Shown: in pieces, positions 7,232 to 54,556 of the stretch
Position numbering within the stretch: position 1 is the first letter of the stretch
How the letters are laid out: each line of letters begins with the position of its first letter
Assembly (NCBI GenBank): GCA_038046385.1
Contig: JBBSWH010000006.1
Coordinates: 125 to 64,124, forward strand
Direction: 5' to 3'
Source: Nanobdellota archaeon
GTDB taxonomy: Archaea > Nanobdellota > Nanobdellia > Woesearchaeales > GW2011-AR4
Length of the DNA: 64,000 nucleotides
Notes under the pieces: model-generated
The model's input: only the letters and a program-made list of their open reading frames with translations
What the model was told of the DNA's origin: nothing
The model's database searches: none
Translations under genes and position numbers: made by a program

Positions 7232-7528
7232 CACCGGAGGACTCTGCCGGGAGGTTAGCACTCTCCTGTTAGCGCTAACGTGCTTCAAGCGCGGTGAAGT
7301 TTGGAAAGAGGCATAGGCTATTGCATTTGGTCTTGATCCCTACGTCGAGACTTTGCCCCATAGGACTGATGTTTTTGAAAATCCGTCAGGTCTGGAAGGA
7401 AATGTGCGAAAACACACCTAATGCAGCGGTAATCTTGAGCATTGGTGCTTATGGGTTACAGAGTTGAGGAAGGAACAAGGTAGCTAAATGTGACGGTTTA
7501 TGCCCATTTCTAAGCGCGTCCTCCACTT
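7232..7528 (+). ncRNA. ffs: Signal recognition particle (7S) RNA
   Basis: GC-enriched non-coding stretch. GTCAGGTCTGGAAGGAA (7385-7401) and GCAGCGGTAA (7423-7432) match the universal helix-8 GNAR-tetraloop region GUCAGGUCCGGAAGGAAGCAGC. The 5' GGAGGAC (7236-7242) pairs with the 3' GTCCTCC (7518-7524), followed by an oligo-T run. Ends are approximate (+/-10 nt). Confidence 0.7.
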
Positions 7529-12228: not shown

Positions 12229-15200
12229 ATGGTTTTCAAGCGCTATATTCACAGGCACGGAAAAAAGCTCGGCCCTTATTATTACGAGAACATGAGGGGG
12301 CCGGACGGAAGCATAAGAACAGTTTACATAGGCACTAATCCGCGCCAGCATCCAAAGCATAAAATAAGGCGCCCTTTGTTTTTCCTGATTGTGGTTCTGC
12401 TTCTTGTGCTTATTCTTGGCGGAATGCTTTTTTTCCTGCAAAACAAGCCATACTTAATAAAAAAAGTGAAGGGGAATGGGGAACTTAATTTTGATGCTGA
12501 CCAAATTCTTCTAAAAGTCCTTGTAAGGTCAAAAGAGTTTATAGAAAAAGATATACGAGTCATGAATACTGGAGCTGATGCAACCGATATAACCATTGAA
12601 GTTGAAGGGGTTTCTGACCTTGTAAAGACAGATTCTGCTTACTTTACGCTTAAGCCCGGCCAGACCAAGATAGCAAGGCTAAATTTTTCTTCTGTTTTTG
12701 TTTCTGAAGGGATAGAACAGCAGCCGGGAGTTTACATCGGAAAGCTTGTGATAAAATCAGAGAAAGGGCAAAAAGAGATTCCGATAGTGATTGAGATTGA
12801 GACAAAAAATGTTCTTTTTGATATGAATCTTAATCCAGTTGCAATTGAAAGAAAGGTAAGGCAAGGCCAGGACACTACAATTGAAGTCAGGCTGTTTAAT
12901 CTTGAAAGTATAGAATCTGAAAATGTTGATGTTGAATATTTTGTCAAGGATATAAGCGGAAACACGATACTTACTGAAAGCGAGACTGTTGTTGTGAAGA
13001 CACAGGCTTCTTTTTTCAAGACAGTATCTATACCAAAAAACCTCAAGCCAGGGCCTTATATTTTTGCAGCCCAGTCAAAATTTGGAAATTCTATAGGCAC
13101 ATCAAGCTATCTGTTTGAAGTTATAGACCTAAATGACCAGGAACCAAGCTTCGTGAATTTCTGCAAGAATAGTGTAATGTGCCTTGGACTGTCGCTTGCA
13201 ACAATCCTGCTTTTGTTCTCGCTTATGGCTTACTTTTACTTTTTTATTGGAGCTTATCTTTATGAAAAAATATCCGGCAAGGAGATGATACAAAAAGGCA
13301 AGCAAAAGAAAATGAAAAACCTTGAGGAAATTGAAGAAACTCCCGAGCTGTTTGGGCGCATGAGAATATGGTCAAGAAAAAGAGATGGGATAAAAGATAA
13401 GGAAGAAAAAAGAAGAGAGCAGGAGCTAATGAAGCCAAGCAGCGAGCTTAAGTCTTTGTACGCCTCTATGAAAATGCTTGATGAAGCTGCCGATAAAAAA
13501 GACTTTGAAAATCTTGACAAGTTCTACATAAAAGCAAAAGACATTTACATGAAACTTAACAATGCAGAGCAGAGGCAGGTCTACAGCAAGCTGATGCAGC
13601 TATACAAGATAAGAAATAATCTTGTTGAGGAAAAAAGAAAAGAAGATGAAAAGCTGCAGGAAAAACAAAAAGAAGCGGAAAGAAAAAGGATTGAGGCTGA
13701 GATAAAAAAGAAGGCTGCTGCAAGGGAAGAAAAGAAAGATGCGTTCAGGGAAAGCGTTCTTGGAATTATGCATGTGATAGGAGTTTACAAGACGCCTGAA
13801 GAAAGAAAACAGATTGCAGTCCTAAAGGAAAAAAAGAGAAAAGAGTCTGAGAAAGCAAGACAGGCTGCTGAAAAGCAACAGAAATTAGAAGAATTAAGAA
13901 AACAAAAAGAGCTCAGAAAACAGGAAGTCCTGCAGCAGAAGAACAGGATTGAAGAGGAAAATAAAAAGCAGAAAGAAGCTGAGATTTTGAGGAAATCGCA
14001 GGAAAAACAGCAGATGGAAGAAGAGAAACGGCGCAAACTGCAGGAAGCAGAAGCCAGAAAAACAGAAGAAGCGCAAAAAAAACTCAGAGAAGAAGAAGAG
14101 ATGAAACATCAGGAGGAGGAAGAAAAAAGAGCTGAAGAGCAGCAGATAGAAGAGGAGCAAAGAAGGAAAGAAGATTTCAAAAGACAAAGAGAGGAAGAAA
14201 ATAATAGGAAAGTTGAAGATACCAGAAGAAAAAAAGAAGAAATTAAAAAACTAAGGGAAGAGCAAAAACAAAAAGAAGATGAGGAAGCAAAAAGAAATGC
14301 AGCTGAAGAAGAGCAGAGGAAGATTGAAGAAAGCTTAAGGAGAAAAAAAGAGAAAGATCTTAGAGAGCAGGAAAAAACAAGAAAAGAAAGGACTGAAAAA
14401 ATAGAGAACCTGAAAAAAGAGCTGAAGAAAAACAGAACATCTGCTGAGAATATTGAATCAAATATTTCTGATATGAAATCAAAAATAAATTCATTGTCAT
14501 CCGATACTTCTGATCATGAATCAAAAGTGCATGAGCTTGAATCGATGCTGCAATCCAAGAAGAAAGAACTTGAAGAGTTGACTAAACATAAAAAATCTGT
14601 CTTGGATGGCCGTTTGAAGAGCCGCAAGTTCAGCATAAAAGACGCAGAACATGATGCTGAAAAGGCCAGGAGAAAAGAACTAAAGTCACAGCTTGCTGAA
14701 AGGGAATCCCAGCTGATGAAAGATCTTGAAGATGATTTGAAATCCTTAAGCGTGGATTCAAGGAAAAAAGCAGAGAGATGGAAAAAGCTGGAAATCAAGG
14801 CAAAGCTGGAAGTCGAGAAGAGCAAGCTGGAAGAAGGGCTTAAGGATTATTCTGCAGAGATTGTTGAGCGCGCAAAGAGGGAAAGCAAGCAGGATAATGA
14901 AATGCTCAAGGAAATAAACAAGAAGCAAAGAGAACTTAAAAGTGAAACAGCTGAATTAAATGCCCAGAAGCAGGAATTATTGTCAAAAAGGAAAAATGCT
15001 CCGGAAATGATTAAGGATTTTGAGGCAAAAATTCAAAATAATACAAAAAAACTGGAAAACCTAAAAAACAAAATAAGATTGATTGAAGATGAACTTGAAA
15101 AAGAAGGCGAGCTGGTTAATAAAACAGCTGAAAAGGGGGGAAAAACCGGATTTTTCAAAAATCTGTTTGCATTAAAAAAGAAAGATTCTGAAAATTCGCT

Positions 15201-15372
15201 TGAAAAATTCCAAATCCTTATGCAAAAAACAAAAGAGGCTGCTTCAAAAGGCGATATGGGCAGCGCAAAGAAGAATTATGTTGTGACAAGGGAAGCCTAT
15301 TTATCATTAAACGCTGCTGAGAAAAAAGAAGTGTATCCTGAGTTTATGGAAGTTTATAAAATGTTAAAGTAG
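12229..15372 (+). CDS. Bitopic/double-pass membrane protein: ectodomain paralogous to 10948..12090 plus a very long cytoplasmic E/R/K-rich helical region
   Basis: 1047 aa. N-terminal KRYIHRHGKKLGPYYYENMRGPDGSIRTVYIG and TM1 LFFLIVVLLLVLILGGMLFF. Beta-sandwich-like repeats (FDMNLNPVAIERKV...PGPYIFAAQSKF). TM2 LGLSLATILLLFSLMAYFYFFIGAYLY. The remaining roughly 700 aa are dominated by E, K and R. Confidence 0.55.
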   Translation: MVFKRYIHRHGKKLGPYYYENMRGPDGSIRTVYIGTNPRQHPKHKIRRPLFFLIVVLLLVLILGGMLFFLQNKPYLIKKVKGNGELNFDADQILLKVLVRSKEFIEKDIRVMNTGADATDITIEVEGVSDLVKTDSAYFTLKPGQTKIARLNFSSVFVSEGIEQQPGVYIGKLVIKSEKGQKEIPIVIEIETKNVLFDMNLNPVAIERKVRQGQDTTIEVRLFNLESIESENVDVEYFVKDISGNTILTESETVVVKTQASFFKTVSIPKNLKPGPYIFAAQSKFGNSIGTSSYLFEVIDLNDQEPSFVNFCKNSVMCLGLSLATILLLFSLMAYFYFFIGAYLYEKISGKEMIQKGKQKKMKNLEEIEETPELFGRMRIWSRKRDGIKDKEEKRREQELMKPSSELKSLYASMKMLDEAADKKDFENLDKFYIKAKDIYMKLNNAEQRQVYSKLMQLYKIRNNLVEEKRKEDEKLQEKQKEAERKRIEAEIKKKAAAREEKKDAFRESVLGIMHVIGVYKTPEERKQIAVLKEKKRKESEKARQAAEKQQKLEELRKQKELRKQEVLQQKNRIEEENKKQKEAEILRKSQEKQQMEEEKRRKLQEAEARKTEEAQKKLREEEEMKHQEEEEKRAEEQQIEEEQRRKEDFKRQREEENNRKVEDTRRKKEEIKKLREEQKQKEDEEAKRNAAEEEQRKIEESLRRKKEKDLREQEKTRKERTEKIENLKKELKKNRTSAENIESNISDMKSKINSLSSDTSDHESKVHELESMLQSKKKELEELTKHKKSVLDGRLKSRKFSIKDAEHDAEKARRKELKSQLAERESQLMKDLEDDLKSLSVDSRKKAERWKKLEIKAKLEVEKSKLEEGLKDYSAEIVERAKRESKQDNEMLKEINKKQRELKSETAELNAQKQELLSKRKNAPEMIKDFEAKIQNNTKKLENLKNKIRLIEDELEKEGELVNKTAEKGGKTGFFKNLFALKKKDSENSLEKFQILMQKTKEAASKGDMGSAKKNYVVTREAYLSLNAAEKKEVYPEFMEVYKMLK

Positions 15373-15776: not shown

Positions 15777-16688
15777 ATGACCCAAACTTTAGGCATTGTA
15801 AAGGAAGGCAGGCTCATTCCGGAAGATTTATGGATAAAATTCATTTCCGGGATGGAGAATGGATTTGACAATCTTGAAACCAATCAGGAAAGGGCAAAAA
15901 GAGAGCTTGCAAAAGCCATTGTTGAGGCTGTCAGAAAAAGAGCGACTACAAAATTCGGGATATTGCTTTCCGGCGGGGTTGACAGCTCATTGATATCATT
16001 CATTTCAAAGCAGCTTAAGTGCAATTTCACATGCTATACTGTCGGGATTGAAAATTCTGATGATATTGTGTGGGCAAAGGATGTTGCAAAAGAATATGGA
16101 TTGGCGCACAAGGTAAAAATGCTGACTCTTGATGAGCTTGAAACTGTGCTAAAGGAAACTGTATCCATATTGAATGATGCTGACATTGTGAAGGCAAGCG
16201 TGGGATCTGTGCTGTATGCATGCGGGAAAGTTGCGCTTGCAGACGGAAATAATATACTTTTTGGAGGCTTGGGAAGCGAAGAGCTTTTTGCAGGCTATCA
16301 AAGGCATTCTGATGTTTTTCAGAAAACTGGCTATGAAGGCTTGCATAAGGAATGCTGGAATGGTTTAAAGGGAATGTGGAAAAGGGATTTGACGAGAGAT
16401 TTTGCAATCGCAAAGCATCTTGGGCTTGATTTAAGAGCTCCGTTTCTTGACAAAGATATTGTAAAAACTGCAATGAATGTTCACCCAATGCTAAAACTAG
16501 ACAAGGACCAGAAAAAAATAATTTTAAGAGAAGCTGCTGAGTTTATTGGACTGAAAAAAGAATTTGCGTGGCGCAAGAAGCAAGCGGCTCAATATGGAAG
16601 CAATTTTGTCAACGGGATAGAGAAGCTTGCAAAGAGAAAAGGATTTCAATATAAAAAAGACTATCTGCAGAGCTTGCTAAAAAAATGA
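15777..16688 (+). CDS. Asparagine-synthase-like PP-loop ATP pyrophosphatase (no glutaminase domain)
   Basis: ILLSGGVDSSLI (SGGxDS PP-loop) and C-terminal DLRAPFLDKDIV...KIILREAA resemble the AsnB synthetase domain. Confidence 0.65.
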   Translation: MTQTLGIVKEGRLIPEDLWIKFISGMENGFDNLETNQERAKRELAKAIVEAVRKRATTKFGILLSGGVDSSLISFISKQLKCNFTCYTVGIENSDDIVWAKDVAKEYGLAHKVKMLTLDELETVLKETVSILNDADIVKASVGSVLYACGKVALADGNNILFGGLGSEELFAGYQRHSDVFQKTGYEGLHKECWNGLKGMWKRDLTRDFAIAKHLGLDLRAPFLDKDIVKTAMNVHPMLKLDKDQKKIILREAAEFIGLKKEFAWRKKQAAQYGSNFVNGIEKLAKRKGFQYKKDYLQSLLKK

Positions 16689-17092
16689 AATACTCGTTTC
16701 ATGCTTTTGGGCATAAGAACCTTCTTGGAACACATAAGAATACACTTGAGTTTACAAAAGACAAAAATCTTACATTAAAAGGTGATTGTATTGTTGGTGT
16801 TAATGCTGATTTTGATGCTGGAGAATTAAAGAATTTCATTAAAAACTGCCCAAATAAAAAAATAACAATAACGATAGAGACTTCTGATAAAAAACTGCAT
16901 GAAAAAGTTAATGCTGAACTTAATATGGACTTTGATGATGAACATGAAATTGTCATAAGGAAAACCGATTTTGTGTCAAAAAGAACCTTTGCAGTAAATG
17001 CTGATAAGGCTGCATTTGAGCTTGACAGGAAACTTGTTGATTTTTTAAGGAAAAGCGATGATAAGATAAGGATAATTCTTGAAAGCGCTTAA
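16685..17092 (+). CDS. DUF371-like protein
   Basis: FHAFGHKNLLGTHKNTLEFTKD...LKGDCIVGVNAD pattern as remembered for archaeal DUF371. ATGA overlap with the upstream gene. Confidence 0.5.
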   Translation: MKYSFHAFGHKNLLGTHKNTLEFTKDKNLTLKGDCIVGVNADFDAGELKNFIKNCPNKKITITIETSDKKLHEKVNAELNMDFDDEHEIVIRKTDFVSKRTFAVNADKAAFELDRKLVDFLRKSDDKIRIILESA

Positions 17093-17187
17093 AGGGTAAG
17101 CTTTTTAAAGGGGTATTCACTAGTTAGGGATAACAAGGGGCTAATTGAAGTTTTATAAAAAAACAGATTAGATAGGAAACTGAAGAG

Positions 17188-18588
17188 ATGATAAAACCAA
17201 ATGAAGTGAGCGGGGATGAAGTTACCCAAAGAATGTCTCAGTTCAGATTCTATTCTCAAAGGCAGTTTGAAGATCAGACGGGATATTCTGTGCCATTTTT
17301 ATTCAAAACTTCACTGCTCGCATATGCATTAAGCTATGGAAATCTAAATTATTCTAAAAATCATTCCCCGGTCCACTATAATGATACTGCAACATCTCCC
17401 TGGTTCAGGTTTAAAGAAAGCGGATTCTGGCTTGAGCCAAATGCGATGGTTTTGGCAATGACTCATGATTTGCCGGAAGATATAGGAAAAAATTTATCCA
17501 AGAAAAAAAGCACAACTTATTCTCTTTTAGCATCTTATGTTATAATGGATGTAATCGATTCCGTATTAGCCCGTGAAACTGGGATGGATATTGATGCCCT
17601 CCTTGGGCTTGTAACAAACAAAGGGGAAATAATATTCGGGCCTACTGCCAAGCATTTTGAATCAAGAATTGTTCCAGGGAACGCGTCTGAAGTTGATCCT
17701 ATGGATCTTGTAAGAAGGATTAAATCTGATCATGGAGCCATCCCAAGAAAATGGGGGGCTTTTTACAATCACAATATCAATATGGCTTATACAAGTGTAC
17801 TAAAAAGGCTTGAAAGAACTTTGAATGCGCTTTACAGTCCAGGACATGAAGCCGATTTAAGCCATGATGAAAGAAAATATGTTGGAGATACAATAAGAGA
17901 GTTTGTAAGAACTATAGAGTCAAGGAGAACTGGCAATGAAAAACCAAAAGCAAGAGAACTAAAAGGATTTGTTGACTTCGAATTTGAAAAATTAATACAG
18001 AGGGTTTCTTTTGGAAATTTTGCAGAAATAGACCCGCAATTGGTTCTTCCGTCTTCTTCAGAGACTGTTGTCAGGATTAAAACAACACTTTATGGGGAGT
18101 ATGTAGGAGAGATTATGGATGTGTCAAATGCTCAGCAATATGCAGGAACTGACTTGGATCCTGCTGTAGTAAAATGCGCTGATGCAAGGGATACTGCGTC
18201 AAGGCTTGGACCAAATTTAGACAACATAGTCAATCAATTCAGAAAACATACTATAATACTCGAAAAGGGTGTTGAAGCTGTCAATTACCGAAAAGTAGCT
18301 GGCGTTGGCTATGGCAACCTTGACCGTGCATTGATATTTTTACTTGAAACTTTAAATGAAGCATTAGTTAGCAGAAGGGACACCAAAGAAAGCGAAAAAA
18401 TTGAGAATACGCAATACAAAATTGAGTATGAAACACTTGACTATATGGCATGGCTTATGTCGGGATTAAGGACGCGATTAGGAATGCCTCCCGGATTAGA
18501 TGACATGTTTAAAACCATTCCAAATGATGATAAGATTGCTAGAATAGTTCGTGATGCTATGAAACGGGCAAATGGAAGGCCTGATTAA
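17188..18588 (+). CDS. HD-domain protein resembling the RelA/SpoT (p)ppGpp-hydrolase fold, with a large insertion
   Basis: VLAMTHDLPEDIG (compare LLHDvvEDT) and, about 240 aa later, VVKCADARDTASRLG (compare iKLADRlhNmRtl). A candidate upstream His lies in NHSPVHYND. Coordinates taken from the ORF track. Confidence 0.5.
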   Translation: MIKPNEVSGDEVTQRMSQFRFYSQRQFEDQTGYSVPFLFKTSLLAYALSYGNLNYSKNHSPVHYNDTATSPWFRFKESGFWLEPNAMVLAMTHDLPEDIGKNLSKKKSTTYSLLASYVIMDVIDSVLARETGMDIDALLGLVTNKGEIIFGPTAKHFESRIVPGNASEVDPMDLVRRIKSDHGAIPRKWGAFYNHNINMAYTSVLKRLERTLNALYSPGHEADLSHDERKYVGDTIREFVRTIESRRTGNEKPKARELKGFVDFEFEKLIQRVSFGNFAEIDPQLVLPSSSETVVRIKTTLYGEYVGEIMDVSNAQQYAGTDLDPAVVKCADARDTASRLGPNLDNIVNQFRKHTIILEKGVEAVNYRKVAGVGYGNLDRALIFLLETLNEALVSRRDTKESEKIENTQYKIEYETLDYMAWLMSGLRTRLGMPPGLDDMFKTIPNDDKIARIVRDAMKRANGRPD

Positions 18589-19738
18589 AATGGGAAAGAA
18601 TCCAACAGAACCAAGTTTAATGAGAAATTATTTTGGTCAAGATACAAAAACACATGATTTGGTAGCTGGTATAAGGAGAGGCATTGCTAATGGGAGAATG
18701 CCCAAATTCAGAGATTCTAATATAAAATCTGTCCAAAGAGAAGTTAACAAAAAAATATTAGCCATCGATAGGTCAACTTATCCGTCTGCACAGGATTTGG
18801 ACCATCTTGTATTAAGCGGAGAAAAGAGGAGGGTTGTTCTTCTTGTTACTGGCAGTTTTTATGGTAGAGGAGAGGGTATAGATAGTGTGCTTGGATTTGA
18901 CTTAGGGATTAATCCTAACATGCTATTTGACAAGAAGTATCCTAATGATACAATAGATTCAAGAGTAAGCTTCGATATGACCCAAGGGTATATAACAAGA
19001 AATTTAAGTGAGCTTATGGGGAGGGGCTTCGAGGTGTTTAATGTAAAGAACTCCGCATTCTTTTATATTTCAGATGCACCTCTTAGAAGTTTTGAAAGAG
19101 GTGGGGAAGTGTACATGCCTGCATTAGTGCCGCTGCTTGTTTCTACTAGCCATGTTGGATTGACTCCAGTAAGTGTTCCCTCTTTTGAAGGATATTCTGC
19201 ATCTGGAATTATGCCTTTTACAAGCTACAGGCTTAAAGCTTCATTAGCTGACAAATTGCTTTTTAGGCTTGGATTCGGAGAGATTCACGAAAAGAATGCT
19301 ATACGCGATTGGGCTTCCAATAGGATAGTTGTAGACACAGAAGAAGAGGCAACGAGATTATTTGAATACCTTAAATCATCGCCAACAATAGGAAGGCGCA
19401 GCGCCTCTAAAGTTAAATACCTAAAAGATATGGAAGGGGCTACAAAAGATTACTACGCTAAACCGGAAGAATCAGGATATAGGGCATTTCATATGCCAGT
19501 TAGCGTTACTACAAAAGGCCATTGTGCTGTTTTGAGGGAGATACAGATTGTTGACAGTTTTCAATATTATAGGAATGAAGTTAACTCAAAAGACCCTGCC
19601 CACCATAGCCATCAGAAAAAAAAGAGAGACCATATAAAGTCAAGCGGAGATGCTAATTGTCCAATTGCAGAAGCCCAAAGAGTGCTAGGACTTGCGCTTG
19701 GCCAGAATAATTTCTTTATAGAAGTCAGGCCGTATTAA
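18572..19738 (+). CDS. Protein with a C-terminal RelA/SpoT-synthetase-like nucleotidyltransferase domain and an unknown N-terminal domain
   Basis: Collinear motifs YRLKASLADKL, IRDWASNRIVVDTEEEATRLFEYL, ESGYRAFHMPV, LREIQIVDSFQ and HHSHQKKK. Overlaps the HD gene by 17 nt; alternatively Met7 at 18590 leaves a 1-nt spacer. Confidence 0.6.
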   Translation: MEGLIKMGKNPTEPSLMRNYFGQDTKTHDLVAGIRRGIANGRMPKFRDSNIKSVQREVNKKILAIDRSTYPSAQDLDHLVLSGEKRRVVLLVTGSFYGRGEGIDSVLGFDLGINPNMLFDKKYPNDTIDSRVSFDMTQGYITRNLSELMGRGFEVFNVKNSAFFYISDAPLRSFERGGEVYMPALVPLLVSTSHVGLTPVSVPSFEGYSASGIMPFTSYRLKASLADKLLFRLGFGEIHEKNAIRDWASNRIVVDTEEEATRLFEYLKSSPTIGRRSASKVKYLKDMEGATKDYYAKPEESGYRAFHMPVSVTTKGHCAVLREIQIVDSFQYYRNEVNSKDPAHHSHQKKKRDHIKSSGDANCPIAEAQRVLGLALGQNNFFIEVRPY

Positions 19739-19826
19739 TTTTAGATGTTTTGTTTTTATATAATTTATATAAAAAAGGATGTCAAAACCATAAGATTTAT
19801 ATATAGTGTATTTAAAGTAAGGTACT

Positions 19827-20198
19827 ATGGCTTATCAAACTGTATCACAAACACCTACAAATAAACCTAGTGGGAATTATGGTCATGTAAATACTTACAG
19901 AAGTAATTTAACCAATATGAACTTTGATATTAGAGTTGGAAGTGATGGTGTTATTGTGCTTGGTTTTCCTCATGTGAGTGTGGTTTTACCACAACGTAGA
20001 GCAGATGGCAGTAATGTAACAAAAGATTCTGCAAGTCCAGAAGATGCTGCTAAAATTTTGAAGCAACTTTTAGTAATGACTGGGGTAAGAGAATCGCCCC
20101 CTTTAAATGAAATTTTGGCAGCAGAGGAGCCGCTTATTAGGAGCATATTATCTGATTTGTCTAATTATAGAACACCCGGAACTGAACAAATCAGTTAG
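19827..20198 (+). CDS. Hypothetical protein
   Basis: 123-aa ORF with ATG start and an upstream TATTTAAAG box. No family recognised. Confidence 0.35.
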   Translation: MAYQTVSQTPTNKPSGNYGHVNTYRSNLTNMNFDIRVGSDGVIVLGFPHVSVVLPQRRADGSNVTKDSASPEDAAKILKQLLVMTGVRESPPLNEILAAEEPLIRSILSDLSNYRTPGTEQIS

Positions 20199-20858: not shown

Positions 20859-22622
20859 TCAAATGCCCCAAACCGGGTTTGTTTTCCTCATTATTTCCGC
20901 TATCTCCTTCAAAGTATCTATCTCTTCCTGTGTCAGAAGCTTCTTGTTTTCCTTGAATTTTCGGAAATGGTCTTCAGGCACGACAGAATACAAAACATCG
21001 TCTTCGTGTATCTGCCTTCCAACTGTGACATTTGGCAATGAAACTGCGATTTGCATTCCTTTCTCTGCCTTTTGCACCGTTTCCTGCTCTTTCTGTATGC
21101 TCTTTGCCTCTGTTATAGGAACGCCGTCTTTCTTCATTAATTGAATTCCTGCTTTTAATGTTCCTGCAAGGACTTCTGCCCCTATTACTGCAGGATTATT
21201 CTGCCTGAAAATGTATCCTCTCAATAGTTTTATCTTGCACGGCCTGCTTAAGAATTCCATTTCTTTTCCTTCAAGCCGTTTCTTTTCTTCTGACTGCCAC
21301 AAACTAAATTCGTCTATGAGCTTGTAGATTATGTTGCTGGAAATCACTTTTACATTCTGCGGTGGTTTTACGTCCTGCATTAGCTCTGCATTGAATCCGA
21401 GGATTGCGCACTGAAGCGGGTCTTTTTCATAGTTTGCCTGGGCATCTGAAACATCTTTTTTTGTTATGTCTCCTATTGACGCTTTTTTAATCTGGATTCC
21501 TTTTTCCCTGAGGAGTTTTATCAAAGCTTCCAGGCTTCCAAGCGAATCTGCTTTTATCACGACACCATTTTTGTCGGTTTCTATTATGACTTCATCAATT
21601 TCTTTTTTTATCTCTTCTTTCACGATTTCAACTTCGGATGGCTTGCAGCTTCTTAACGGCATTCCTGCCACGACCTTATCAAAATCGTTTCCGGATATCT
21701 TAACGCCAGTAGCTGCATAAACCTGCTTTACATTTGTGAATTTTGCTTTTTTGTCTCGCATCTCCATCAAAGGAAGGGGCTCTGATATGGTTTTTACTTT
21801 TGAGACAATCGGCTCATTAAGAGACCCAATTACTATTGTGTCATTCTGCCTTAAAGAGCCATCGTAAATTATAACATCAAGCGTTGTCCCAAGGCCTTTC
21901 TCCTCTTTGACTTCAAGAATAGTTCCTTTTGCGTGGCCTTCCATGTTGACTTCAAGGTCTTTTTCAAGAAATTTCTGTGATAACCCCATCATCACCATAA
22001 AAAGTTCTGACATTCCTTCCTTTGTTTTTGCAGAAATAGGGATTATTGCAATTTGCTTTGTATAATCTTCAACCCTGTCAAAACGCTCTCCGCTTAATCC
22101 AAGCTCGCTTAATCTTCCGACAACTTCATAGTGCTTTTTCTCAAGCATCATGACAACATTTTCTTTCTGCTTCGCTATGTTCTCTATTAATGGCGTATCT
22201 GGATTATGCACCCATCCGGAAATCAGGTCTATTTTATTTAATGCAATTACAAAAGGAGTTTTGTATTGCTTCAGTATGTCAATGCATTCTTCTGTCTGCA
22301 CTTTTATTCCATCATTGACATCAACAACCAGTATTGCCATGTCCGCTAAGTTTCCTCCTCTTTTTCTCAAACTGGTAAAGCTTGCGTGGCCAGGCGTGTC
22401 AATTATTACAAATCCCGGAATTTTGATTTCGAGCTTAAGCTTTTCAAGCAGCTTGCCGCTTATTTTTTTTATGACATCAAGAGGAATTTGAGAACATCCT
22501 ATGCACTGCGTTATCCTGCCCGGCTCTGACTCGACAATAGCGGTATTTCTAATTGTATCCAGAAGCTGTGTTTTGCCAGCATCAACGTTTCCCATTACCG
22601 TGATTATCAATTGGCGTAGCAT
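20859..22622 (-). CDS. infB: Translation initiation factor aIF5B (IF-2 family GTPase)
   Basis: GNVDAGKT (G1), DTPGH (G3), NKID (G4). Length and domain order are typical of aIF5B. Confidence 0.9.
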   Translation of the reverse strand: MLRQLIITVMGNVDAGKTQLLDTIRNTAIVESEPGRITQCIGCSQIPLDVIKKISGKLLEKLKLEIKIPGFVIIDTPGHASFTSLRKRGGNLADMAILVVDVNDGIKVQTEECIDILKQYKTPFVIALNKIDLISGWVHNPDTPLIENIAKQKENVVMMLEKKHYEVVGRLSELGLSGERFDRVEDYTKQIAIIPISAKTKEGMSELFMVMMGLSQKFLEKDLEVNMEGHAKGTILEVKEEKGLGTTLDVIIYDGSLRQNDTIVIGSLNEPIVSKVKTISEPLPLMEMRDKKAKFTNVKQVYAATGVKISGNDFDKVVAGMPLRSCKPSEVEIVKEEIKKEIDEVIIETDKNGVVIKADSLGSLEALIKLLREKGIQIKKASIGDITKKDVSDAQANYEKDPLQCAILGFNAELMQDVKPPQNVKVISSNIIYKLIDEFSLWQSEEKKRLEGKEMEFLSRPCKIKLLRGYIFRQNNPAVIGAEVLAGTLKAGIQLMKKDGVPITEAKSIQKEQETVQKAEKGMQIAVSLPNVTVGRQIHEDDVLYSVVPEDHFRKFKENKKLLTQEEIDTLKEIAEIMRKTNPVWGI

Positions 22623-54431: not shown

Positions 54432-54556
54432 GCGGGGATGCCGGAGTGGCCAAACGGGACAGACTCAAGTGGGTACCTATTTTAGGTCATGCGGAGTAAA
54501 TTCCTAAGTTATCTGTTAGCTTAGTGCTTACGCAGGTTCGAATCCTGCTCCCCGCA
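54432..54556 (+). tRNA. tRNA-Leu (anticodon CAA) with a 41-nt intron at the canonical 37/38 position
   Basis: Manual fold: acceptor GCGGGGA/TCCCCGC, D arm CCG-GAGTGGCCAAA-CGG, anticodon stem ACAGA/TCTGT with loop CTCAAG-[intron 54470-54510]-A, long variable arm TAGCTTAGTGCTTAC, T arm GCAGG-TTCGAAT-CCTGC, discriminator A. Confidence 0.85.

Follow-up and report, generated by a model that had tools for sequence, protein, structure and literature searches.

A putative small alarmone synthetase gene and a divergent hydrolase-like partner at a fixed chromosomal position in a Nanobdellota archaeon

The window analyzed here is a 64,000-nt stretch of contig JBBSWH010000006.1 from a Nanobdellota archaeon, and its archaeal nature is reflected by an archaeal signal recognition particle (SRP) RNA at 7235-7525 and by an aIF5B-type gene at 20859-22622 on the minus strand. 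The present work concerns two adjacent genes of this window, open reading frames (ORFs) 1 and 2, which on balance probably make up a module for the synthesis and hydrolysis of a pyrophosphorylated nucleotide, inherited vertically in a DPANN-type lineage of small-genome archaea, together with a small gene that follows them (ORF3). The three ORFs described in the initial annotation of this DNA are all present on the plus strand and every peptide quoted there was found in its place. The features of the locus, with the ORF2 motifs as read from the sequence, are the following:

17093..17187, plus strand: intergenic stretch 5' of ORF1, in which a TTTTATAAAAAAA box, read from the sequence, lies about 30-40 nt before the ATG
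17188..18588, plus strand: ORF1, 466 aa, a member of an all-helical family without annotation
17359..17385, plus strand: NHSPVHYND of ORF1, containing the invariant H63, which aligns with SpoT H48 (the first metal-binding His)
17458..17487, plus strand: MTHDLPEDIG of ORF1, residues 91-100, with H93 and E97 invariant, D94 nearly so, and D98 in the same motif
18166..18210, plus strand: VVKCADARDTASRLG of ORF1, residues 327-341, about 236 aa after MTHDLPEDIG, candidate for the last metal-binding Asp box
18572..19738, plus strand: ORF2, 388 aa (382 aa if the start is 18590)
18590..19222, plus strand: N-terminal domain of ORF2, about 210 aa, predicted alpha/beta, conserved within the family
19223..19624, plus strand: RelA_SpoT synthetase (SYNTH) domain of ORF2, assigned by Pfam PF04607 and by the family profile against RelP/RelQ
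from 19223, plus strand: ORF2 motif SYRLKASLADKL
19301-19333, plus strand: ORF2 motif IRDWASNRIVV
within 19448-19495, plus strand: ORF2 motif ESGYRAFHM
19532-19555, plus strand: ORF2 motif LREIQIVD
19601-19624, plus strand: ORF2 motif HHSHQKKK
19827..20198, plus strand: ORF3, 123 aa, a lineage-restricted accessory gene

The stop codon of ORF1 occupies 18586-18588, and both ATG codons implied by the earlier description of the junction are present, giving either a 17-nt overlap with ORF2 (ATG 18572) or a 1-nt spacer (ATG 18590). The second codon is the likelier true start, because the ORF2 homologs begin with MAKDEPNL or MSKQKEPNL and because the 1-nt spacer between the upstream gene and ORF2 is shared by the window and its nearest relative, L004. 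Such a spacer implies that the expression of ORF1 and ORF2 is coupled, and the TTTTATAAAAAAA box may correspond to an archaeal TATA-type promoter of an ORF1-ORF2 transcript.

The C-terminal ~130 aa of ORF2 is, by its sequence, a RelA_SpoT domain of the small alarmone synthetase (SAS) type, homologous to SAS enzymes and with the catalytic motifs intact, in agreement with the synthetase-type domain proposed in the initial annotation. The five motifs listed above are collinear within the last ~170 aa, and ORF2 matched Pfam RelA_SpoT (PF04607) over residues 239-330 with 29.2 bits (cut-off 27, E=1.2e-6), while its relatives scored 35.1 bits (P0002) or 24-25 bits (L007 and L011). NCBIfam returned a weak YjbM match alone, and PADLOC a domain-level match to the candidate system PDC-S33 (E=3.9e-6). 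A word-indexed search recovered seven relatives of ORF2 at 34-48% identity, and further family members were taken from GTDB and metagenome scans. When a nine-sequence family profile was searched with HMMER against all PDB sequences, the matches were RelP (6fgj_A, E=4.9e-10; 6ewz_A, E=6.5e-10), two SAS-type GTP pyrophosphokinases (2be3_A, E=1.2e-7; 3l9d_A, E=1.9e-7), RelQ (6fgk_A, E=1.1e-6), and YjbM (5dec_A and others, E=0.004), whereas long Rel, RelA or SpoT chains, Tas1, CapRel, and FaRel2 did not appear at E<=10. The locus had been described as a split RelA/SpoT, a description that this restriction of the matches to RelP, RelQ, and YjbM does not bear out; a recent fission of a long RelA/SpoT homolog (RSH) was likewise rejected, since the profile found SAS chains only and no TGS or ACT domain was matched in Pfam. 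The pair looks, from the sequences at hand, like a small alarmone hydrolase (SAH)-like protein accompanied by a SAS-like protein rather than a recently divided long RSH.

The alignments behind these matches place the expected catalytic elements on each other, with SyRlKq..SLaaKl of the ORF2 profile on RRVKEMRSLIEKL, DwvahRiv on DIAGIRVV, kdyYekPkkngfra on KDYIQHPKENGYRS, and REiqi on VEIQI. In the numbering of the 388-aa protein, S218, R220, K222, S224, K228, D246, R251, and R322-E323-I324-Q325 are invariant in all full-length members of the family, so that the patterns S-x-R-x-K-x-S-x-x-x-K, D-W-x-x-x-R-x-V, and R-E-I-Q occur in every one of them, across identities of about 31-49%. Moreover, hhalign placed D246 and the GY loop of ORF2 on SpoT D259 and G302-Y303, and motif position together with the RelP/RelQ alignment equates the basic residues with SpoT R236/K238/K246 and E323 with SpoT E319. 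These correspondences predict that R220, K222, S224, and K228 would bind the phosphates of ATP, that D246...R251 would form the Mg site, that GYRAFH would be the loop contacting the acceptor base, and that E323-I-Q325 would carry the catalytic Glu.

The first ~210 aa of ORF2 had been said to match nothing recognizable, and no match was found for this region in Pfam, NCBIfam, PADLOC or the PDB sequences; that description needs one correction, which is that the region is conserved across the ORF2 family. Among the family members, the closest ortholog of ORF2 (P0003, L004:2506-3558) has an in-frame deletion of ~38 aa in which the GY..H and EIQ blocks are gone and is apparently, as far as its reading frame tells, a natural synthetase-dead variant; intact orthologs of ORF1 (35% identity) and ORF3 (61%) are kept beside it.

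ORF1 gave no match in Pfam, NCBIfam, PADLOC, PHROGs or the PDB sequences, and a word-indexed homolog search returned the query alone. An exhaustive HMMER search defined an ORF1 family of 45 cluster representatives, mostly 440-495 aa long. In an alignment of 37 of its sequences, 18-37% identical to ORF1, residues H63, R74, H93, E97, and Y302 were invariant and G32, D94, K329, D335, and K353 nearly invariant (the last four in at least 90%), while D332 was Asp or Glu in nearly all members, which amounts to the pattern H...HD..E(D)...K..D..D. The initial annotation had likened this protein to the HD_4-type hydrolase domains of RSH enzymes, and that likeness was examined with an independent HD_4 mini-profile built from E. 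coli SpoT residues 1-200, three long-RSH hydrolase domains, and two Mesh1 fragments (six sequences in all). In hhalign, the E-values of which are here those of single comparisons, the full-length ORF1 family scored 38.0 against this profile (E=1.2e-4, probability 55%), compared with 19-21 for reversed controls and 22.8+-2.7 (maximum 31.5) for 40 block-shuffles; the N-terminal 150 aa scored 36.1 (E=3.1e-5, probability 73%), likewise above these controls of the full-length comparison. The matched region covers residues 36-103 and sets H63 on SpoT H48, H93-D94 on H72-D73, and E97-D98 on E76-D77 of LLHDVIED. At the level of profile-profile sequence comparison, the ORF1 N-terminus appears to be related to HD_4; searched with a mini HD_4 HMM (hidden Markov model), ORF1 itself was returned at E=4.1.

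An AlphaFold2 model of ORF1, computed with the family alignment as input, was confident and all-helical, with a predicted local distance difference test (pLDDT) score of 90.7 and a predicted template modelling (pTM) score of 0.90. The predicted helices would be compatible with an HD core, with a His at a helix start and the HD pair in the turn between helices 84-92 and 95-105. The protein is laid out as an N-terminal ~100 aa bearing the RSH-type HD signature and a helical region of ~360 aa, and about 75% of it has no assignable function; plausibly, the first ~100 residues constitute an RSH-type HD core and the remainder is a large helical elaboration. Large extra regions without assigned function are thus present in both proteins, as had been noted before. 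The second conserved box of ORF1 had been put forward as the counterpart of iKLADRlhNmRtl in RSH hydrolases, and the box is indeed conserved (K329 and D335), but the equivalence comes from an alternative hhalign alignment of just 1.3% probability, in which K329-x-x-D332-x-R-D335 falls on KLADRTHNMR (SpoT 136-146).

The genes found upstream of the ORF2 relatives provide, among the sequence comparisons, the strongest argument for a synthetase/hydrolase pairing. All fetched loci were annotated with profiles for every component, and four kinds of gene were found directly 5' of ORF2. The first is the ORF1 family itself, which occupies this position in the window, in L004 (35% identity, E=1e-77), in L011/L020, and in L010, where the ORF1-family gene is followed by a different and more canonical RelA_SpoT protein (56 bits, GYRSYHM...ELQIRT) with an N-terminal region that differs from that of ORF2. 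The second kind, designated class B, comprises proteins of 471-522 aa (P0010-13, L007, L019, L017, and a fragment in L016) that could not be aligned with ORF1 by BLAST or by full-length hhalign. Against the HD_4 profile, class B reached a probability of 94% (E=1.1e-7, score 58.8, shuffle maximum 44.2), with SRyMGGpYdeH on RssGepYitH, LHDVVED on LHDVIED, and KLLDR on KLADR, and its link to the RSH hydrolases runs through this comparison only: in HMMER searches of the PDB, a two-sequence class B profile gave two chance-level matches to pantothenate synthetase (E=0.42) and a seven-sequence profile gave none. In addition, hhalign weakly aligned the N-terminal sub-profile of the ORF1 family with that of class B, and the register was the same (E=6e-4).

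The third kind of upstream gene encodes a 432-aa protein in L018 with the motifs HPIDTA...ALFHDILEDK...IRIKLADKI. Its top four PDB matches, namely Mesh1 (3nr1_A, E=0.02), Drosophila Mesh1, MESH1, and Rel, are without exception (p)ppGpp hydrolases, and it matched the HD_4 mini-profile both in hhalign (89%, E=2.6e-6) and in HMMER (27.6 bits). In this lineage only, a 240-aa PrmA-like S-adenosylmethionine (SAM) methyltransferase gene (L018:2695-3417, plus strand) lies between the HD_4-like and ORF2-like genes. The fourth is a PHP-family phosphoesterase (L006:127-987, plus strand; PHP_C 25 bits) directly 5' of the ORF2 relative P0004; the L006 contig ends just 5' of the PHP gene, and a further HD-like gene there is possible. 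Among the fetched loci, every complete gene upstream of an ORF2 relative was phosphoesterase-like, the fragments in L014 and L021 being too short to classify. ORF1-family genes also occur without ORF2, in L008 and L009; a 324-aa gene downstream of the latter was considered as a divergent ORF2 and rejected (hhalign probability 1.4%). The expectation that the pair would be co-conserved in relatives was borne out, an upstream partner being present in every informative locus. Altogether, the constant presence of a phosphoesterase-like gene 5' of ORF2, together with hydrolase-type genes that can stand alone, matches the rule described for bacteria, according to which a SAS is not kept without a hydrolase and hydrolases can stand alone (PMC3153485).

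The position of the pair on the chromosome is equally constant. In every locus long enough to be read, the gene order was Asn-synthase-like, DUF371, a gene of 430-520 aa, ORF2-like, a variable small gene, PUA (minus strand), aIF5B (minus strand), and Trm1, even among genomes in which aIF5B is only 60-72% identical; one of the relatives is labelled 'Nanoarchaeota archaeon' by NCBI, as a metagenome-assembled genome (MAG). Relative to the window, the flanking genes (Asn-synthase-like, DUF371, PUA, aIF5B, and Trm1) showed 53-89% identity, except that DUF371 was at 44-46% in L001 and L019, which are class B loci. ORF2 showed 31-47% and was replaced in L010, and ORF1 showed 22-34% or was unrecognizable. 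The slot is, by this comparison of loci, stable and vertically inherited, and its content is fast evolving. A fixed slot among translation genes, retained across genomes with aIF5B identities this low, argues for long vertical inheritance and not for mobility, and since the pair is held at one position across a diverged archaeal lineage, it appears to be maintained by selection rather than to be passing through. No integrases, transposases or defence genes were found near the pair in the window or in the related loci, and a second RSH-like ORF was looked for elsewhere in the window without one being found. The idea of a mobile defence island was accordingly rejected, given that all loci share the slot between DUF371 and PUA/aIF5B with housekeeping flanks, and the earlier suggestion of a toxin-antitoxin or defence module is not supported in a mobile form, the domain-level PDC-S33 match being the one defence-related signal returned by PADLOC. 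The ORF1-family genes always follow the Asn-synthase-like and DUF371 genes (15777-17092 in the window; also L008 and L009), even where ORF2 is lacking.

Taken together, these observations make it probable that ORF1 and ORF2 form a two-gene operon, fixed between the DUF371 gene and the PUA/aIF5B/Trm1 block, for the synthesis and removal of a pyrophosphorylated nucleotide. ORF2 would most likely use ATP to pyrophosphorylate a purine nucleotide at its 3'-OH. The similarity of ORF2 to RelP/RelQ favors a product of the (p)ppGpp or (p)ppApp type, and the N-terminal domain of ORF2 is probably regulatory. ORF1 would be a greatly enlarged and divergent relative of the RSH-type HD pyrophosphohydrolases (Mesh1/SpoT-like) that has kept H...HD..ED, and it would most likely remove the ORF2 product and thereby limit the self-toxicity of the synthetase. 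From these comparisons of genes and predicted proteins we infer that either protein is an active enzyme, which acceptor is used, that ORF1 hydrolyzes the ORF2 product, and what physiological role the pair has.

Several results weigh against this reading and were considered together. For ORF1, no HD_4 match was obtained with HMMER/Pfam at E<=1 for the protein or for any of the 37 family members, no Pfam family was consistently matched across these members, and the family profile found no HD protein among the PDB sequences, so that the proposed likeness to HD hydrolases holds for the motifs and for hhalign scores above the controls and fails at the level of Pfam. The hhalign link is itself moderate (55-73% probability) and spans just ~65-100 residues, and the fourth metal ligand could not be placed, with D332 and D335 as the conserved candidates. 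The structural comparison did not recover an HD fold in either database despite the confident model: Foldseek against the PDB gave a best E of 0.12 with a template modelling (TM) score of about 0.16 and no HD, RSH or Mesh1 structure in the top 50, and against BFVD a best E of 0.20, with a phage phosphohydrolase at a non-significant E=0.85; Foldseek may be insensitive to a helical core of ~100 aa inside a helical protein of 466 aa. For ORF2, the Pfam score exceeds the cut-off by just 2 bits, and the model was poor (pLDDT 51); its Foldseek matches to Tas1 (E=0.03) and CapRel (E=0.05) belong to the right family, but neither is significant and they are no more than suggestive. Furthermore, in the clade of ORF2 proteins associated with class B, the GYxxxH loop is altered to F-K-A-K-N, which may mean that the acceptor or the activity is changed. 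Finally, ORF1 and ORF2 evolve much faster than the flanking genes, a behavior compatible with either a conflict system or a housekeeping regulator.

The last point leads to the possibility that the pair is a toxic SAS (toxSAS)-type toxin-antitoxin, addiction or anti-virus module, in which ORF2 would arrest growth as a pyrophosphokinase, either by making an alarmone or by modifying the CCA end of tRNA with pyrophosphate, and ORF1 would be its antitoxin, either a hydrolase in the manner of ATfaRel (type IV) or a direct binder (type II). The order of the genes, with an HD-like gene directly 5' of a SAS gene in a conserved bicistronic arrangement that has an upstream partner in every informative locus, is that of ATfaRel-FaRel (bioRxiv 10.1101/575399), and the contrast in identity between the pair and its flanks, the non-homologous or very divergent replacements within the slot, the varying accessory genes, the PDC-S33 match at E=3.9e-6, and the loss of the ORF2 catalytic block in P0003 of L004 with ORF1 kept would all be at home in such a system, as would the non-significant Foldseek results, in which the toxin-type RSH enzymes Tas1 and CapRel lead the non-phosphatase matches. 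This explanation nevertheless has to accommodate a slot fixed among translation genes and inherited over a long time, surroundings in which mobile elements and defence genes were not found, proteins far larger than the known toxSAS and antitoxin pairs, and best sequence matches that are housekeeping-type RelP/RelQ and do not include Tas1, CapRel or FaRel2; we consider it rather unlikely. As regards the role, fixed synteny and RelP/RelQ-like sequence favor housekeeping signalling, whereas an addiction- or defence-type role is favored by the rapid evolution of the pair, by the replacement of partners, and by a gene order like that of ATfaRel-FaRel.

It is also conceivable, and in our view improbable, that ORF1 does not hydrolyze what ORF2 makes and serves instead as a helical regulator or scaffold, or is tied to the DUF371 and Asn-synthase-like genes that it always follows (in L008 and L009 without ORF2), in which case the HD..ED-like motif would be another metal site or a coincidence and ORF2 would act alone, merely inserted next to ORF1. 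The failure of HMMER and Foldseek to support an HD domain and the ~75% of ORF1 without assignable function are in line with that idea. Conversely, across a family at ~18-37% identity to ORF1, H63, H93, and E97 never vary and D94 hardly does, the hhalign register with HD_4 exceeds its controls, the 1-nt spacer implies coupled expression, and the occurrence of three other HD_4-like or PHP phosphoesterase genes in the same position is hard to explain unless ORF2 needs a phosphoesterase. That ORF2 is an inactive or repurposed RelA_SpoT fold, such as a nucleotide-binding sensor, with the pair lacking pyrophosphotransfer chemistry altogether, appears highly improbable: the borderline Pfam score, the one clade with GYRAFH changed to F-K-A-K-N, and the ortholog P0003 without its catalytic block speak for it, yet all full-length members, across ~31-49% identity, have the R/K/S/K residues for the ATP phosphates, the Asp for Mg binding, and the catalytic Glu-x-Gln without variation, and these align with the same residues of the active RelP and RelQ.

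The synthetase/hydrolase interpretation can be placed beside several known systems. RelP and RelQ (PF04607) share with ORF2 the collinear motifs R-x-K-x-x-S-x-x-x-K, D-x-x-x-x-R, (P)K-x-x-G-Y/F, and E-I-Q-I; ORF2 differs from them by its conserved N-terminal ~210 aa without known relative, by Ser or Ala in place of the glycine of D-x-x-G-x-R, by IVD replacing IRT after EIQ, and by being archaeal and encoded beside a dedicated HD-like gene. Mesh1 and PbcSpo (HD_4, PF13328) share with ORF1 the series His...His-Asp..Glu-Asp in the order and spacing of the HD_4 core, and their boxes R..G.PY..H and K-L-A/L-D-R are also kept in the class B and L018-type equivalents. In contrast, ORF1 has 466 aa against about 180 aa, fails the Pfam model, has its HD box separated by ~230 aa from the Asp that is the candidate for the last ligand, and retrieved no HD structure with Foldseek. 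In the FaRel-ATfaRel pair, a SAH serves as the type IV antitoxin (Jimmy et al., bioRxiv 10.1101/575399), and there, as in the window, an HD-type hydrolase gene lies directly 5' of a SAS gene and its product is expected to remove that of the synthetase. ORF1 and ORF2 are, however, larger by a factor of two to three, the hydrolase-like protein can hardly be recognized as HD_4, and the locus is a fixed, vertically inherited archaeal slot among translation genes, unlike the patchy or mobile systems of bacteria and phages. Lastly, the pair reproduces the hydrolase-then-synthetase order of the long RSH enzymes (Rel/SpoT), and translational coupling mimics a single polypeptide, but TGS and ACT domains are lacking and the halves are separate genes in every relative.

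RSH genes in archaea have been described as rare, sporadic, and horizontally acquired from bacteria (PMC3153485), and some archaeal and eukaryotic SAS genes were found without a recognizable hydrolase, for which very divergent hydrolases were suggested as the explanation (Atkinson et al., PMC3153485). RelA/SpoT annotations have been reported for 41.7% of Woesearchaeota, 21.3% of Pacearchaeota, and 19% of Nanoarchaeota (mSystems 2021, PMC8407392), therefore genes of the RSH type in the DPANN superphylum are already on record; that survey was an eggNOG-level count without analysis of gene pairs, domains or synteny. The proteins of the ORF1 and ORF2 families are 'hypothetical' or unnamed in their sources, most of them below Pfam thresholds. 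What is new here is thus a SAS-like/SAH-like pair in an unusual host, with a large divergent hydrolase-like partner, an unmatched N-terminal domain in the synthetase, and a fixed housekeeping location. To our knowledge, (p)ppGpp has never been detected in archaea.

The locus offers a concrete candidate for alarmone-type signalling in archaea and proteins ready for assay, with ORF2 or P0002 as the putative synthetase and ORF1, class B or the L018-type protein as the putative hydrolase, for alarmone or tRNA pyrophosphorylation chemistry. Moreover, the ORF1 family and class B escape Pfam and may explain 'missing' hydrolases as very divergent HD-derived proteins. Should the pair turn out to be no more than a type IV toxin-antitoxin system fixed in the chromosome, the toxSAS paradigm would be extended to archaea, a useful but incremental step. 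A bolder proposal, which we regard as quite unlikely, is that the pair lies at the heart of an alarmone system native to a DPANN lineage and passed on vertically there, in which a SAS with a new sensor domain would make a (p)ppNpp-type messenger, giant HD-derived hydrolases of novel structure (the ORF1 family, class B, and relatives) would remove it, and the messenger would target components of the translation machinery whose genes surround the locus, such as the GTPases aIF5B and DRG. If true, it would be the first stringent-response-like circuit in archaea and would involve a hydrolase fold not represented in the PDB.

The small gene 3' of ORF2 varies among the loci, being ORF3 in the window and in L004, a 106-aa gene in L011, and a 281-aa gene in L007; the L011 gene was considered as an ORF3 homolog and rejected for lack of similarity. 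ORF3 gave no family match in Pfam, NCBIfam, PADLOC or the PDB sequences and is missing from the more distant loci, those of class B included. It is not the orphan gene that it had been taken for, as its ortholog lies in the same position in L004, where at 61% identity it is better conserved than ORF1 or ORF2. The spacer between ORF2 and ORF3 (19739-19826) is very AT-rich, with several TATA-like boxes, and gives ORF3, a possible member of the ORF1-ORF2 module, an AT-rich upstream region of its own.

Other genes of the window and of the related loci deserve mention. A gene at 12229-15372 (plus strand) encodes a protein of 1047 aa that combines an N-terminal transmembrane segment with a beta-rich region and a Glu/Lys-rich coiled coil of ~650 aa, and long coiled-coil genes resembling it also lie upstream of the same block in L007 and L010. 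Beside aIF5B in L007, a contig labelled 'uncultured Methanosarcinales archaeon', there is a 447-aa ORF of a bacterial-type sigma-70 factor with regions 2-4 readable (L007:10883-12226, minus strand), which could stem from horizontal transfer or from a chimeric assembly. In the window, ARAGORN reported no tRNA over the whole length, and an Rfam tRNA match of 45 bits spans 125 nt at 54432-54556 (plus strand), which is probably an intron-containing archaeal tRNA.

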